Shown here piece by piece: positions 13,063 to 18,110 of a stretch of 64,000 nucleotides of DNA; positions within the stretch are counted from its first letter, which is position 1; the number at the start of each line of letters is the position of its first letter. Origin of the DNA: Vulcanimicrobiota bacterium (lineage in GTDB: Bacteria > Vulcanimicrobiota > Vulcanimicrobiia > Vulcanimicrobiales > Vulcanimicrobiaceae); contig OY969579.1 of NCBI GenBank assembly GCA_963701255.1, positions 2,669,702 to 2,733,701 on the forward strand, read 5' to 3'. The notes under the pieces are model-generated. The model ran no database searches and had not been told where the DNA came from. It worked only from the letters and a program-made list of their open reading frames with translations. The position numbers and the translations under genes are program-made.

Positions 13063-14826
13063 ATGGAACGCGGTTTGGTTTTGCGGCGGCTCCTACGTGA
13101 GGCTCACCCGTACTACAAACGCCTGGCGCTTGCGATGGTCTTGGGCTTCCTGGCCGGCCTCGCACCGCTCGCGCTGCTGCAGGTTCCCAACGTGTTTCCC
13201 CGCGTGCTCGTGTTCAAGCACGCTGCCGGCGGGACCATGGTGCCGGCCGGGATCGACGCCGGCGCGCTGTGGCTCGTGATCGGGATCGTGCTGGTCTCGC
13301 AGATCGGGGGGGCGCTGGCGGGCTACGGACAGAGCTACTTGACCGCCTGGAGCGGGCAGCGCTTGATCGCGACGCTGCGCGCGCGGCTGTTCGACCGCGT
13401 CAACCGCATGCCGCTGCTCGAGTTCGACAAATGGCGGCCCGGAGAATTCATCTCACGCTTTTCGAGCGATCTGGGGATGATGACGGACGCGGTGTCGATC
13501 TCGCTGCCGCAGATGGTGCAAGTAACCGTCACGTTTTTGGGCGCGCTCGCGGCGATGTTCTACATCGATTGGCTGCTCGCCATCGTGCTGCTCGCGTGCG
13601 CCCCGTTCATCTCGATCATCATCGGCCGGTTCAACAAATTGGTGGTCACGAGCACGCGGCGCGCGCAAGAGCGGATCGCGGATCTCTCGAGCAACCTCAC
13701 CGAAGTCTTGCAGAACGAACGGATCGTCAAGGCGTTCCGGCGCGAAGATTACGAGCGCGACCGGTTCGCGGGGGCCAACGAACGGTTTTTCGGCGCGAAC
13801 ATGAAAGTGACGCAATTCAACCAAACGCAGGCTCCGGTGATCGCGAGCGTCGTCTCGATCGCGATCTGCGTGATGGTGGCGATGACCGCGCGCGAGCTTG
13901 CGCTCGGGCGGCTCGATCCCAAAGTCGCGGTCCAGTTCTTCGTCGCGGCGGCGATGATGATCAACCCGATGAACCGCTTCTCGATCTTCCTGGGCGATTT
14001 CTCGCGCGCGCTCGTCGGCGCCGGCCGCGTCTTCGAGATCCTCGACCTGCCCGTCGAGCGCGACGACCCGCCCGGCGCACTGCCGCTGCGTAGCGTGGTC
14101 GGCGACATCCGCTTCGAGCACGTCCGCTTCGCCTATGAGGCAGGCGCTCCGCCGGTACTCGAGGACTTCTCCGCCGAGATGCGCCACGGCGAGACCGTCG
14201 CGCTGGTCGGCCCTTCGGGGGCCGGGAAGTCGACCATCGTCAACCTCGTGCCGCGCTTTTACGAGCCCCAGGGCGGGCGGATCACGGTCGACGGGACGGA
14301 TATCGCGAACGTCCGGTTGGGCGACCTGCGCAACGCGATCGCGATCGTGCCTCAGGAGACGATGCTCTTCAACGGGACGATCGGCGAGAACATCCGCTAC
14401 GGCCGGCTCGACGCGAACGACGCCGAGGTTCGCTCGGCGGCGAAGGAGGCCAATGCCGAAGAGTTCATCGCCGCGCTGCCGGACGGCTACGAGACGATCG
14501 TCGGGGAACGCGGCGTCCGGCTCTCCGGCGGCCAACGCCAGCGCATCGCGATCGCCCGCGCGATCCTGCGCGATCCGCGGATCCTGATCCTCGACGAGGC
14601 CACCAGCTCCCTCGACTCCCATTCCGAGGCCATGATCGAGGACGCCCTCGACCGGATCCTCCCCGGCCGCACGACCCTCATCATCGCCCACCGGCTCTCG
14701 ACGATTCGCCGTGCCAGCCGCATCCTTTATATTGAAGCCGGCAGCGTGCGCGAGATGGGGACCCACGAGACCCTGCTCGCCGCGGGCGGGCCCTACGCCA
14801 CGCTGCACGCGGCGCAGTTCGAGTAG
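13063..14826 (+). CDS. ABC transporter, fused permease/ATPase (MsbA-like exporter)
   Basis: 587 aa. N-terminal 6-TM domain, Walker A GPSGAGKST, signature LSGGQRQR, Walker B ILILDEATS. Confidence 0.9.
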   Translation: MERGLVLRRLLREAHPYYKRLALAMVLGFLAGLAPLALLQVPNVFPRVLVFKHAAGGTMVPAGIDAGALWLVIGIVLVSQIGGALAGYGQSYLTAWSGQRLIATLRARLFDRVNRMPLLEFDKWRPGEFISRFSSDLGMMTDAVSISLPQMVQVTVTFLGALAAMFYIDWLLAIVLLACAPFISIIIGRFNKLVVTSTRRAQERIADLSSNLTEVLQNERIVKAFRREDYERDRFAGANERFFGANMKVTQFNQTQAPVIASVVSIAICVMVAMTARELALGRLDPKVAVQFFVAAAMMINPMNRFSIFLGDFSRALVGAGRVFEILDLPVERDDPPGALPLRSVVGDIRFEHVRFAYEAGAPPVLEDFSAEMRHGETVALVGPSGAGKSTIVNLVPRFYEPQGGRITVDGTDIANVRLGDLRNAIAIVPQETMLFNGTIGENIRYGRLDANDAEVRSAAKEANAEEFIAALPDGYETIVGERGVRLSGGQRQRIAIARAILRDPRILILDEATSSLDSHSEAMIEDALDRILPGRTTLIIAHRLSTIRRASRILYIEAGSVREMGTHETLLAAGGPYATLHAAQFE

Positions 14827-14916
14827 CCTTAGCGGCAGAGGCAACCGGCGCCGGCGCGCATCCGCCGCGACGGCGGGACCTAACGCTTTCGGCCTCGTGA
14901 GCCGAAAGGAGAGGTG

Positions 14917-15351
14917 ATGGCGGATTCAATGATCTCGTTCGGGAGTACCGTACAACTCCTCAAAGACGCGACCCACGGGGCTTCTGAAACGCATAATGCG
15001 ATCGCGAACAACATCGCGAACGTGAGCACCCCGGGTTTCGCGCGTACCGATGTCTCGTTCAAGGCGGCTTTGGCCGCCGAACAAGGCGTGCCGGCCGATC
15101 CCGACCAGCTCGCGCTGAGCACCGATCAGCCCAATCAGATTCCGCTGGGCGGCGACCTTCCGGCGTTGCCCTTCGCGGTAACGAAGTCGGTCGACCATAG
15201 CGAGCAGATGCGGGTCGACGGCTCGAACGTCGACCTCGATCAAGAGATGGCCAAGCTTTCGATCAACTCGGGCTATTCCTCGATGATGCACGAATTGCTG
15301 AGCAATCAATACACGCGCATGCGCCGCGCGATTACGGAGACCAATACCTGA
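14917..15351 (+). CDS. flgB: flagellar basal-body rod protein FlgB
   Basis: ATG 14917 (GTG 14914 also possible) after AAGGAGAGG. Has the rod N-terminal motif NNIANVSTPGF and sits first in a flgB-flgC-fliE order. Confidence 0.88.
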   Translation: MADSMISFGSTVQLLKDATHGASETHNAIANNIANVSTPGFARTDVSFKAALAAEQGVPADPDQLALSTDQPNQIPLGGDLPALPFAVTKSVDHSEQMRVDGSNVDLDQEMAKLSINSGYSSMMHELLSNQYTRMRRAITETNT

Positions 15352-15863
15352 TGGGCATGTACGACTCGATCGAGGTCAGCGCGTCCGGCCTCTCGGCCCA
15401 ACGTCTCGCGATGGACGTTATCGCGAACAACCTCGCCAACGTCAACACGACGCGCACGCCCGAGGGCGGTCCGTTCAAGCGTCAGCTCATCGTGTTCGCG
15501 CAAAAACAAGAAGCGGCTTCGGCCGCCCAAACGACCACTTCGGGTGCGGCTTCGGACACCGCGACTGCCGCGGACGTGACCTCGGGCGATCCGGCCGGAG
15601 ATTTCTTCGGTGCCGATCCCTCGAAGGCGCGGGCCGGCGTGCAAGTCGTCGGCATCACGAACGACAACGGCCCCGATCGCCTGGTCTACGACCCCGGTCA
15701 CCCCGACGCCGACGCGCAGGGCTACGTGCACATGCCCAACGTCGATGTCGTCAAGGAAATGGTCGACATGATGACCGCCCAGCGTGCCTACGAAGCCAAC
15801 GTCACTGCCATCCAAGAGTCGCGCAGCATGGGCACCGCCGCCCAATCGCTGCTGAAAGCCTAG
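15351..15863 (+). CDS. flgC: flagellar basal-body rod protein FlgC
   Basis: SGLSAQR..VIANNLANVNTT N-terminus and YVHMPNV..EMVDMMTAQRAYEAN C-terminus. 1-nt overlap (TGATG) with flgB. Confidence 0.93.
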   Translation: MGMYDSIEVSASGLSAQRLAMDVIANNLANVNTTRTPEGGPFKRQLIVFAQKQEAASAAQTTTSGAASDTATAADVTSGDPAGDFFGADPSKARAGVQVVGITNDNGPDRLVYDPGHPDADAQGYVHMPNVDVVKEMVDMMTAQRAYEANVTAIQESRSMGTAAQSLLKA

Positions 15864-15868
15864 ACACC

Positions 15869-16216
15869 ATGATCGATTTCGCCGGCGCCGTCCGCACCGT
15901 GATCCCCGGGACATTCGTCCCCGACATGGGCCAGGACACGCCCAACATCAGCCCGATCCCGCCGGCCGCGGGCACGAGCGCTACCGACGGCGGTACGACC
16001 TCGTTCAAAGACACGGTCAAGAAAATGCTCAACGACGTGAACGACAAGCTGCAGACCTCGGACCAGCTCGCAACTGACCTTGCGTCCGGTAAGACGAACG
16101 ATGTCGAGAAGGTCGTCACCTCGTCGGAAGAAGCGAACCTCGCTCTGCAGTTCGCGATGGCGATCCGCACCAAAGTGCTCGACGCCTATACCGAAGTCTC
16201 GCGCATGCAGGTCTAG
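15869..16216 (+). CDS. fliE: flagellar hook-basal body complex protein FliE
   Basis: 115 aa. SFKDTVKKMLNDVN..Q...D.LA.DLASGK..D...V......EANLALQFAMAIRTKVLDAYTEVSRMQV is a typical FliE. Confidence 0.9.
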   Translation: MIDFAGAVRTVIPGTFVPDMGQDTPNISPIPPAAGTSATDGGTTSFKDTVKKMLNDVNDKLQTSDQLATDLASGKTNDVEKVVTSSEEANLALQFAMAIRTKVLDAYTEVSRMQV

Positions 16217-16244
16217 CCCCGAACCGCACCAGGCCGTTTCGACC

Positions 16245-16273
16245 AAGGCCCTCACTCGGTGAGGGCCTTTTGT
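16245..16273 (+). terminator. rho-independent terminator after fliE
   Basis: Perfect 11-bp stem AAGGCCCTCAC / GTGAGGGCCTT with a TCG loop followed by TTTGT, anchored to the fliE stop at 16214-16216. Confidence 0.75.
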
Positions 16274-16288
16274 CTGCGGGGGATCGGG

Positions 16289-17146
16289 GTGAGGCTTGGG
16301 AACCTGGGTGGCGTGAGCGATGGCGCGGGGCTCTTGGGCGGGCGGTACCGGCTCGAGGAAACGGTTGGGCACGGCGCGATGGCCGTCGTGTTCCGGGCCT
16401 TCGATACGGTGCTGGAACGGCCGGTCGCGATCAAGTATTTCCAAACCCACTTGATGCACGAGCACCTGCTCGTCGAACGGTTCCGGCGCGAGGCGCTGGC
16501 CGCGGCCCAGATCGTGCACCCCAACGTCGTCGCCATCCACGATATCGGGGCCGGCGAAGCCGGCCGGCCGTTCATGGTCATGGAACTCGTGGAGGGGCCG
16601 AGCCTTGCGGCGCTGCTCAAGGATGGCCCGCTGCCGGACCGGCGGGCGGCGCGCATCGGCGCAGGGGTTGCGCGGGGTCTGGCGGTCGCCCACGCCCACG
16701 GCTTCGTCCATCGCGACGTGAAGCCGGGCAACGTGCTGATCGCGGCCGGCAACGTCGCGAAGCTGACGGATTTCGGCCTGGTCCACTCCTCCGAGGATCC
16801 ACGCCCGAGCGACCTGACCATGTACGGGTCGATGCTCGGGTCGGCCGCCTACGTTGCCCCGGAGCAGGCCCGGTTCGGTTCGGCTTCGCCGGCCTCGGAT
16901 CTCTACGCGCTGGGCTGCACGCTCTACGAGACGGTCGCGGGAGCGCCGCCGTTCCGGGGAACCACCGCCATCGACATGGCCGTTCGGCGTCTCGAAGAAG
17001 CCCCCGAACCGATCCAGCTGCGCGCGCCCGGGATCGAGCCGTCCTTGGCCGCACTCATCATGGAGCTGCTCGTTCGTGACCCCAGCCGGCGGCGCGACGA
17101 CGCTCACGAAGTCGGCGACGAACTGGCCGCGATCGCCGGAGACTAA
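16289..17146 (+). CDS. stand-alone Hanks-type Ser/Thr protein kinase (catalytic domain only)
   Basis: Has the G-loop VGHGAMAVV, VAIK Lys, HRDVKPGN, DFG and YVAPE. No TM, PASTA or sensor domain. The start is probably GTG 16289 or 16313, because the track start 16259 lies inside the fliE terminator stem. Confidence 0.85.
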   Translation: MRLGNLGGVSDGAGLLGGRYRLEETVGHGAMAVVFRAFDTVLERPVAIKYFQTHLMHEHLLVERFRREALAAAQIVHPNVVAIHDIGAGEAGRPFMVMELVEGPSLAALLKDGPLPDRRAARIGAGVARGLAVAHAHGFVHRDVKPGNVLIAAGNVAKLTDFGLVHSSEDPRPSDLTMYGSMLGSAAYVAPEQARFGSASPASDLYALGCTLYETVAGAPPFRGTTAIDMAVRRLEEAPEPIQLRAPGIEPSLAALIMELLVRDPSRRRDDAHEVGDELAAIAGD

Positions 17147-17170
17147 AGTCCAGCCCTTCGGCGCCGAACA
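17144..17170 (+). promoter_or_regulatory. sigma28 (FliA)-type promoter candidate upstream of flgF
   Basis: TAAA(17144-17147)-N15-GCCGAACA(17163-17170), against consensus TAAA-N15-GCCGATAA (6/8 in the -10). The -35 overlaps the kinase TAA stop, 139 nt upstream of the flgF TTG. Confidence 0.5.
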
Positions 17171-17309
17171 ATAGAGTGGATGCGGCTGGACACCCTCGCG
17201 CGGGTGGAGCCGCGGTTCGACCGGATCGATTGATGGTCGGGCACGCTTGTCGCTTCGGTGCATAGCATCGAGTCGCCGGGCACCAAACACCGTGCGGAGG
17301 GTTTTTCAA

Positions 17310-18110
17310 TTGGTCAGAGGGCTTTATACGGCAGCGACCGGGGCACTAGTCGCGCAAGCCAACGTCGACACGATCGCCAATAACTTGGCGAACGCGAGCA
17401 CGTCCGGCTTCAAGCGCACGCTTCTTCAGGTCGAGTCGTATGCGAAAACGGACATCTACCGGAATCAGACCGATCCCGGTAAGCTTCCGAACGCCTACGT
17501 GAACGGCGTCCCCGCACATCAACTGGTCGGTTCGCTCGGCAGCGGTTCGTATGTCTACGACACGCCGGCGCAATTCGATCAAGGTGCGATCCAACAGACG
17601 GGCAACCCGCTGGACCTGGCGCTTTCGGGCGGCGGGTTCTTCACGGTGCGTACTCCTCAGAATCAACTCGCCTATACCCGGGCGGGCAGCTTCGTCGTTG
17701 GAGCCCAGGGCCAACTCACGACCACGCGCGGCGACGCGGTGCTCGATACCCAGGGCAATCCGGTCACGATCAATCCGCAAAACGGAGCGATTCAGATCGA
17801 CAAACAAGGCAACGTCACGCAAGCCGGGTCGCGACTCGCCCAACTCGGGATCACCGAGTTCGGGAACACGACCGCGCTGCGGCCGCAGGGCGACACGAAT
17901 TTCGTCGACACCGGCGCCAATCCGAGCGCCGCGACCGGCACGACCGTAATCCAGGGTGCGCAAGAGGCGAGCAACGCCAACGTCGTGCGCTCGATGGTCG
18001 ATCTCATCTCGAATCAACGCTGGTTCGAGGCCAATATCAAAATGATCCAAACCCAAGACTCGACGATGCAGGCCGCGATTACGACGGTCGGCCACTCGTC
18101 GTCGAACTAG
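17310..18110 (+). CDS. flgF: flagellar basal-body rod protein FlgF
   Basis: TTG 17310, 9 nt after GGAGG (17296-17300). RGLYTAATG...NNLANASTSGFK N-terminus and ISNQRWFEAN C-terminus. It is the first of two FlgF/FlgG paralogs. Confidence 0.85.
   Translation: MVRGLYTAATGALVAQANVDTIANNLANASTSGFKRTLLQVESYAKTDIYRNQTDPGKLPNAYVNGVPAHQLVGSLGSGSYVYDTPAQFDQGAIQQTGNPLDLALSGGGFFTVRTPQNQLAYTRAGSFVVGAQGQLTTTRGDAVLDTQGNPVTINPQNGAIQIDKQGNVTQAGSRLAQLGITEFGNTTALRPQGDTNFVDTGANPSAATGTTVIQGAQEASNANVVRSMVDLISNQRWFEANIKMIQTQDSTMQAAITTVGHSSSN

Follow-up and report, generated by a model that had tools for sequence, protein, structure and literature searches.

Among the described Hanks-type Ser/Thr kinases, PknB and PknA of Mycobacterium tuberculosis are the best match in both sequence and fold to the protein examined here, a kinase of 277 amino acids encoded between the flagellar genes fliE and flgF of a Vulcanimicrobiota bacterium (hereafter the slot kinase), and like it they are RD kinases with an activation-loop Thr. 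Unlike PknB, the slot kinase lacks a juxtamembrane linker, a membrane helix and a PASTA sensor, and the PknB-like kinases of its own phylum belong to another clade. The closest kinases outside the phylum, with 45-50% identity over the kinase domain, are the Solirubrobacter-type kinases of about 400 amino acids from Actinomycetota, which differ in their Pro-rich linker and C-terminal membrane helix, in their housekeeping, non-flagellar context and in forming a separate clade. We take PrkD (YbdM) of Bacillus subtilis, a small protein of the cytosol, to consist likewise of little more than the catalytic domain and to be controlled, presumably, by its expression level or by other kinases; its gene context differs from that of the slot kinase in having, we assume, no flagellar linkage. 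The defence kinases PD-T4-6 and Stk2 are also single-gene kinases, but vertical inheritance at a fixed locus, as it appears in the slot kinase, is not how defence islands behave. Finally, Hanks-type kinases act in the regulatory network of the Sulfolobus archaellum (PMC5300886). The kinases concerned, ArnC, ArnD and ArnS, are genetically linked to a motility organelle and act on its regulators, and they would be the nearest functional analogy if a flagellar reading of our locus is right; however, they are archaeal, the organelle is an archaellum, and their substrates ArnA and ArnB are FHA and vWA proteins. The likeness is one of analogy only. In the literature we found no published case of a Hanks-type kinase inside a bacterial flagellar cluster, and, to our knowledge, there is hardly any documentation of Ser/Thr phosphorylation feeding into the control of flagellar genes in bacteria.

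The kinase gene lies on the forward strand of the window, by which we mean the whole 64,000-nt stretch analysed here (contig OY969579.1, positions 2,669,702 to 2,733,701), and the genome from which the window was taken is a single closed 3.33-Mb contig. The gene represents a known kinase family in a new, conserved context. On balance, we lean to the explanation that it encodes a lineage-specific, predicted active and soluble Hanks-type kinase, which entered a hot spot between two flagellar operons by a single insertion, was inherited vertically and forms its own transcription unit.

The longest open reading frame (ORF) of the kinase runs from 16259 to 17146 on the forward strand and encodes 295 amino acids. 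Its codon-position GC (0.76/0.48/0.86) gives a typical coding signal, like that of the neighbouring genes, and Pfam Pkinase covers residues 30-278 (E 3.7e-43, 148 bits against a cut-off of 31.7), while no second Pfam domain was matched in the ORF. Orthologs open with M-x4-LLGGRYRL, and the equivalent position here is GTG 16313, which gives 277 amino acids. The length of about 285 amino acids in the initial annotation of this stretch corresponds to the alternative start GTG 16289 and was revised. Both this start and GTG 16259, which falls within the 3' arm of the hairpin behind fliE, were set aside for GTG 16313 on the basis of the ortholog comparison.

The initial annotation had described a complete kinase domain without a sensor, and reading the translation bears this out, since VAIK, HRDVKPGN, DFG and APE are all intact; the glycine-rich loop is GHGAMAVV. 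Over 55 aligned homologs, K41, E60, H133, R134, D135, K137, N140, DFG153-155, P183 and E184 are invariant, and the activation-loop residue T169 is nearly so (at least 90%). When the AlphaFold2 model (pLDDT 91.1, pTM 0.90) was compared by Foldseek with the kinase domain of M. tuberculosis PknB, the TM-scores were 0.88/0.92 with an rmsd of 1.9 Å and 36% identity, and PknB was also the best sequence match, with residues 8-272 aligning to PknB residues 7-274 (E 6e-54). The polypeptide stops right after the catalytic domain and contains no membrane helix, PASTA repeat, sensor or docking domain; the NCBIfam model PknB_PASTA_kin (NF033483) scored 299.7, below its cut-off of 450, and the match covered no more than positions 4-268 of the 563 in the profile. 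With the paired K/E, the catalytic loop, DFG, APE and the bilobal fold, the sequence and the model place the protein among the Hanks-type Ser/Thr kinases, and its predicted architecture is not that of a PknB/Stk1-class PASTA receptor kinase. It is thus a predicted soluble RD kinase without a sensor. As an RD kinase with a conserved activation-loop Thr, its activation probably depends on auto- or trans-phosphorylation, and because a sensor or docking domain is absent, its control is likely to run through protein amount or another kinase and not through ligand sensing.

Some orthologs vary outside the catalytic motifs. Those of Vulcanimicrobium (e.g. P0012, P0021 and P0047) carry a Pro-rich C-terminal tail of 40-60 amino acids with a conserved (I/V)P-x-PN-x-x-x-LP, which may be a docking motif; the tail is missing from the window kinase and its genus. 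Velthaea-like orthologs (P0013, P0043 and P0083) have a deletion of about 19 C-lobe residues, equivalent to window residues 211-229, and keep the catalytic motifs.

When we surveyed 348 genomes of the family, calling the short kinase at E <= 1e-60, 47 were found to carry it. Apart from the window genome, these comprise almost every species of genus g25 (Vulcanimicrobium), together with single genomes from three other genera. In a first sample of 40 relatives, the only close homolog (55% identity) was WPS_15390 of Vulcanimicrobium alpinum WC8-2 (G024), which belongs to the same family as the window genome, and the other best matches were PknB-like kinases of about 700 amino acids with 37-45% identity. 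The metagenome protein collection included same-genus orthologs with 76-81% identity, and it contains about a hundred kinase-only orthologs of 250-361 amino acids in all. In the phylogenetic tree, the slot kinases occupy one side of a branch with support of 100/99, apart from the PknB-like kinases of about 700 amino acids of the phylum (100/100) and from the membrane-anchored Solirubrobacter-type kinases (100/99). The dN/dS values of the kinase, calculated by NG86 with dS near saturation in the deeper pairs, were 0.08-0.35 across all compared pairs and 0.17-0.18 against congeners. Based on these comparisons, the kinase appears to be kept under purifying selection, and we infer that the slot kinases share a single origin followed by vertical inheritance.

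These results also bear on a concern raised in the initial annotation, namely that the gene might group with housekeeping PknB-like kinases that had lost their other domains. A misassembly-truncated PknB-like kinase or a decaying pseudogene would fit the few damaged copies that exist, a frameshifted one in the Velthaea metagenome-assembled genome (MAG) L052 and one with an in-frame TAG in G352. The concern was dispelled by the single 3.33-Mb contig, the kinase-only orthologs, the clade apart from the PknB-like kinases, the intact motifs and the purifying selection, and we discount such an artefact almost entirely.

The initial annotation had placed the kinase between fliE and flgF, and the gene order agrees with this. 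Upstream lie, in order, a DUF4870 gene on the reverse strand, an ABC transporter, flgB (14914), flgC (15351) and fliE; downstream, flgF is followed by flgG, flgA, flgH, flgI, a rod-binding protein gene and flgM, and beyond flgM by flgN, flgK, flgL, fliW, csrA, flagellin, a GT2-TPR gene, fliD and fliS. The flgF start (TTG 17310) was fixed by alignment with orthologs opening MVRGLYTAA. The features around the kinase are as follows.

15869-16216, forward strand: fliE, which closes the flgB-flgC-fliE unit ahead of the kinase (Pfam FliE, E 2.2e-23).
16245-16275, forward strand: terminator-like hairpin after fliE, with stem 16245-16255 pairing with 16259-16269, loop TCG, then TTTTGTCT.
16298-16312, forward strand: G-rich/WA box GGGAACCT and 7-nt spacer before the kinase start, a putative promoter (start-anchored ortholog comparison).
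16313-17146, forward strand: kinase-domain-only Hanks-type Ser/Thr kinase, 277 amino acids (Pfam Pkinase).
17144-17170, forward strand: sigma28-type flgF promoter, consisting of TAAA, N15 and GCCGAACA.
17171-17309, forward strand: structured flgF leader with two hairpins, supported by covariation, with loop GATCGATTGA in hairpin 2.
17310-18110, forward strand: flgF, heading the flgF-flgG-flgA-flgH-flgI-flgJ unit (Pfam Flg_bb_rod, LlgE_F_G_D1 and Flg_bbr_C).

Whether this slot is kept in relatives was a question put by the initial annotation, and the answer is yes for the same genus, Vulcanimicrobium, the Velthaea-like group and two further genera. By combined coordinates, 39 of the 47 carriers have the kinase on the same strand as fliE and no more than about 170 bp downstream of it, and the kinase adjoins flgF directly in every flagellated carrier whose downstream sequence was examined. 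The order flgB-flgC-fliE-kinase-flgF-flgG was confirmed in genus g25, a Candidatus Velthaea MAG, genus g73, a same-genus contig and the Velthaea-like group, and the position is shared by at least four genus-level groups despite protein identities of 50-60%. The upstream side is less constant. In three species (G347, G349 and G321) the kinase is inverted, still between fliE and flgF but divergent from flgF; in G350 a GT2 gene is inserted between fliE and the kinase; in the same-genus contigs L142-145 an IS110 transposase and an unknown gene replace fliE while kinase-flgF is kept; and in G333 the kinase is preceded by a RES-Xre toxin-antitoxin pair. The stable junction is kinase-flgF, and the variable side is fliE-kinase.

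The initial annotation had also named absence of the kinase from identical flagellar loci of close relatives as evidence that would speak against it. Close relatives do have the kinase; more distant flagellated relatives have the same locus and lack it. In such kinase-less genomes (G016, G018, G013, G027 and G028) the fliE-flgF gap measures 160-550 bp, and elsewhere the gap holds other cargo: G007, G005 and G020 carry a PMT_2 (ArnT-like) glycosyltransferase there, G009 an AhpD-like gene, and G011 an unknown gene. The fliE-flgF gap is an insertion hot spot. The V. alpinum locus, for its part, carries ISL3.

In the explanation that we favor, a single event in the ancestor of one subclade of the Vulcanimicrobiaceae, in the little-known phylum Eremiobacterota, would have brought the kinase into this insertion-prone gap, which separates the flgB-flgC-fliE unit from the sigma28-type flgF promoter, and the gene would afterwards have been passed on vertically under purifying selection. 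With its 3' end packed against the flgF promoter, little room would be left for further insertions at the kinase-flgF junction. The kinase stop codon overlaps the -35 element of flgF, so that no neutral insertion site exists there, and this overlap may by itself preserve the adjacency.

A different reading of the same synteny is that the kinase is a dedicated motility regulator, which phosphorylates sigma28/FlgM, the FliW-CsrA checkpoint or an export or rod component and thereby ties flagellar expression to a cellular signal. The initial annotation had suggested phospho-regulation of flagellar assembly or of FlgM/CsrA-type checkpoints, a proposal that our comparisons weaken. We regard a dedicated motility regulator as a plausible second reading, though less likely than the favored one. 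It would account for the conserved slot directly upstream of the sigma28-type flgF promoter in the four or more diverged groups, and for the persistence of the flgF adjacency through inversion and upstream rearrangements. It is also in keeping with the non-flagellar context of the nearest outgroup kinases, those of the Solirubrobacter type, and with the archaeal precedent of Hanks-type kinases acting on a motility organelle. However, the ABC transporter beside flgB, for which no flagellar role is apparent, keeps its synteny throughout the family and into the sister family, and is found in aflagellate genomes as well. Because a non-flagellar gene is equally or more widely syntenic, synteny carries little weight here, and conserved adjacency may be regarded as the default of the lineage. 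In addition, flagellated relatives with an otherwise identical locus lack the kinase, and its presence does not track flagella, as fliE orthologs occur in 155 of the 348 genomes against 47 with the kinase and two aflagellates keep it.

The variable island raises yet another explanation, that the kinase defends against phage by abortive infection in the manner of PD-T4-6 or Stk2. The slot kinase gave a full-length PADLOC match to PD-T4-6 (E 3e-83), and the gap in relatives also takes up the RES-Xre toxin-antitoxin pair and IS elements. When the housekeeping PknB-like domain of the same genome was used as a control, however, it scored better on the PD-T4-6 models (E 6e-106), which indicates that the match is generic to Hanks-type domains, and the lead was rejected. 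Vertical inheritance at one locus in 47 species with dN/dS of 0.1-0.3 is likewise unlike the patchy turnover of defence genes. We consider a defence role very improbable.

We examined how the kinase gene may be transcribed. The hairpin after fliE noted in the initial annotation was upheld: it has a perfect 11-bp stem followed by TTTTGT, and the 96-nt fold of 16205-16300 reaches -54 kcal/mol (z = -4.46), with 0 of 200 shuffles as stable. A generic promoter/terminator scan of the window missed it owing to its short T-run and called no sigma70 promoter, and an Rfam scan of 14700-18000 matched no family. Similar T-run hairpins occur in some orthologous gaps (G351, G330, G326 and G360), and in the same-genus contig L140 no strong hairpin was found after fliE.

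The initial annotation had inferred that the short distance between this hairpin and the kinase left no room for a promoter of its own. This conclusion was overturned by a box at leaderless spacing in the orthologs and by the three species with an inverted kinase. When 18 orthologous loci and the same-genus contigs were compared anchored on the kinase start, several Vulcanimicrobium species showed GGGG-TACACT or GGGG-TATACT (GGGG-TAYACT) 7 nt before the kinase ATG. Weaker forms are present in the genus of the window, namely GGGAATAGG and GGGAAGAAG, and the window copy is GGGAACCT. The kinase start is preceded neither by a Shine-Dalgarno sequence nor by a sigma28 box; what is conserved in front of it resembles a sigma70-type element at leaderless spacing. 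Across the window genome, TANNNT is in excess 6 nt before starts (25 against a background of about 7, with the peak at 6-7 nt), and about 30 leaderless-type promoters were recognized, several with clear -35 boxes. Leaderless mRNAs thus seem to be a regular minority mode beside Shine-Dalgarno initiation in this phylum. We infer from this comparison that the window box is a degenerate counterpart of the ortholog leaderless -10 element and that it functions as a promoter.

In the favored explanation, then, the kinase would be its own transcription unit, which in Vulcanimicrobium would give a leaderless mRNA from the -10 box 7 nt before the ATG. The inverted copies, divergent from flgF, need a promoter of their own. 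The box is degenerate in the window genome, where transcripts that run on through the fliE hairpin may matter and contribute to expression. Since no terminator was found between the kinase and flgF, kinase transcripts should run into the flgF leader.

The kinase stop codon TAA (17144-17146) lies in the TAAA (17144-17147) that, with N15 and GCCGAACA (17163-17170), makes up the flgF promoter. The initial annotation had recognized this overlap in the window, and the stop is the TAA of the promoter box in at least eight orthologs. All 23 of the related loci compared have this box, CTAAAGT-spacer-GCCGA, before flgF, whether or not they carry the kinase. The sigma28 pattern by itself lacks significance in the window, where 1 match was seen and 0.76 were expected, and its 13 matches genome-wide are fewer than in mononucleotide shuffles, so the sigma28 call relies on the conservation of the box and its clustering within the flagellar region, not on pattern statistics. 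CTAAAGT...CCGA boxes stand before flgF (17143), flgM (21762) and fliC (27119); three of the four such sites in the whole genome fall within this 10-kb region, and the genome encodes a FliA/WhiG-type sigma factor. Rod-gene operons do not usually have a promoter of the sigma28 type. As the kinase lies upstream of the flgF promoter, it is not driven by it.

Between this promoter and flgF lies a structured leader, with hairpin 1 at about 17182-17213, hairpin 2 at about 17214-17244 and a Shine-Dalgarno sequence, GGAGGG, just before TTG 17310. The leader is conserved family-wide, with or without the kinase, and the loop of hairpin 2 is GAYCGATTGA. Among 21 sequences, 10 of the 15 predicted pairs show compensatory changes. 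GGA motifs occur in hairpin 1 and in the Shine-Dalgarno sequence, and the leader may represent a novel cis-regulatory RNA or a target of the CsrA type.

The packed junction also suggests a role in cis, in which transcription through the kinase gene supplies the flgF leader and operon with transcripts that do not depend on sigma28, or interferes with the overlapping -35 element, the protein being secondary. The overlap of the stop codon with the -35 box in the orthologs, the kinase-flgF interval without a terminator and the same-genus contig L140 without a strong hairpin after fliE would all suit it. On the other hand, the protein is under purifying selection with invariant catalytic residues, inverted copies are unable to feed flgF, and aflagellates without flgF keep the kinase. 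Such a cis role is highly unlikely in our view.

The aflagellate carriers deserve closer attention. V. alpinum (G024) and a second genome (G361) have no FliE, flagellin or flagellar-type FlhA, and the species description of V. alpinum reports neither flagella nor a flagellin gene (PMC9758169). In these two genomes the kinase keeps all catalytic residues, with dN/dS of 0.19-0.23. Both retain ABC-kinase-flgM-fliW-csrA at the locus and the FliA/WhiG-type sigma factor elsewhere in the genome. In the tree of the ABC transporter they are nearest relatives (88% identity, support 91/83), so that a single flagellar loss event is likely. Between the two, dN/dS of the kinase domain is 0.19, inside the flagellated range of 0.08-0.30, and that of FlgM is 0.49, of FliW 0.42 and of CsrA 0.05, all of these values being rough because dS is near saturation. 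In G361, FliW has internal deletions, and FlgM and FliW look degraded. As species without flagella keep the kinase intact, flagellar assembly is not its sole function. Judging from these sequences, the kinase behaves as a gene with its own function and not as part of the flagellum.

The window genome also contains, outside the window, a second compact type III export cluster (C1:1796040-1808465), with genes for a FliI/SctN-like ATPase and an SLT-like lytic transglycosylase, FliN-, FliP-, FliQ-, FliR- and FlhB-like genes and a second FHIPEP; names other than FHIPEP were read from translations. No rod or hook genes were found in this cluster. V. alpinum and G361 have retained this second FHIPEP type and no other.

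The aflagellate pair can be read in two directions. For a dedicated motility regulator speaks the fact that the loss of the structural genes spared the kinase together with flgM, fliW and csrA at the locus and FliA elsewhere. Against it, FlgM and FliW look relaxed in this pair while the kinase does not, and no Ser/Thr pattern in FlgM, FliW or CsrA tracks the presence of the kinase, with only one kinase-less genome having yielded FlgM for this comparison.

Several observations weigh against the explanation that we favor, a single hot-spot insertion that forms its own unit. First, the aflagellates keep the kinase beside flgM-fliW-csrA, with FliA also retained, and survivors that consist of a kinase and regulators fit a motility regulatory module better than a pure passenger. 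Second, many orthologs do not conserve the final T of the -10 hexamer, and the window box is weak. Third, neither a substrate nor a phosphatase nor an FHA partner was found near the kinase. As for FHA proteins, none is encoded near the flagellar genes, and the only FHA genes of the genome lie at 152 kb and 1.77 Mb. A role of the kinase in motility or lifestyle regulation is plausible.

One specific form of such a role is a Ser/Thr phospho-switch on the late-flagellar checkpoint, either sigma28/FlgM or FliW-CsrA, with the kinase-FliA-FlgM-FliW-CsrA module having been kept in aflagellate V. alpinum and turned to a different programme. We offer this tentatively and think it doubtful; candidates for the re-use are pilus-based phototaxis and the second type III export apparatus. 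If it is true, the phospho-switch would be the first system in bacteria to correspond to the Arn kinase network of archaea.

As by-products, the analysis confirmed a sigma28-type promoter on a rod-gene operon and uncovered a conserved, structured flgF leader with covariation. If the link of the kinase to flagella is real, this clade would offer a minimal one-domain kinase with a short list of candidate substrates, and a cultured carrier in V. alpinum WC8-2. If it is not, the locus would call for caution, since synteny across genera and through rearrangements does not by itself establish function here, and a tightly packed gene-promoter junction beside an insertion hot spot can keep two genes adjacent for mechanical reasons.

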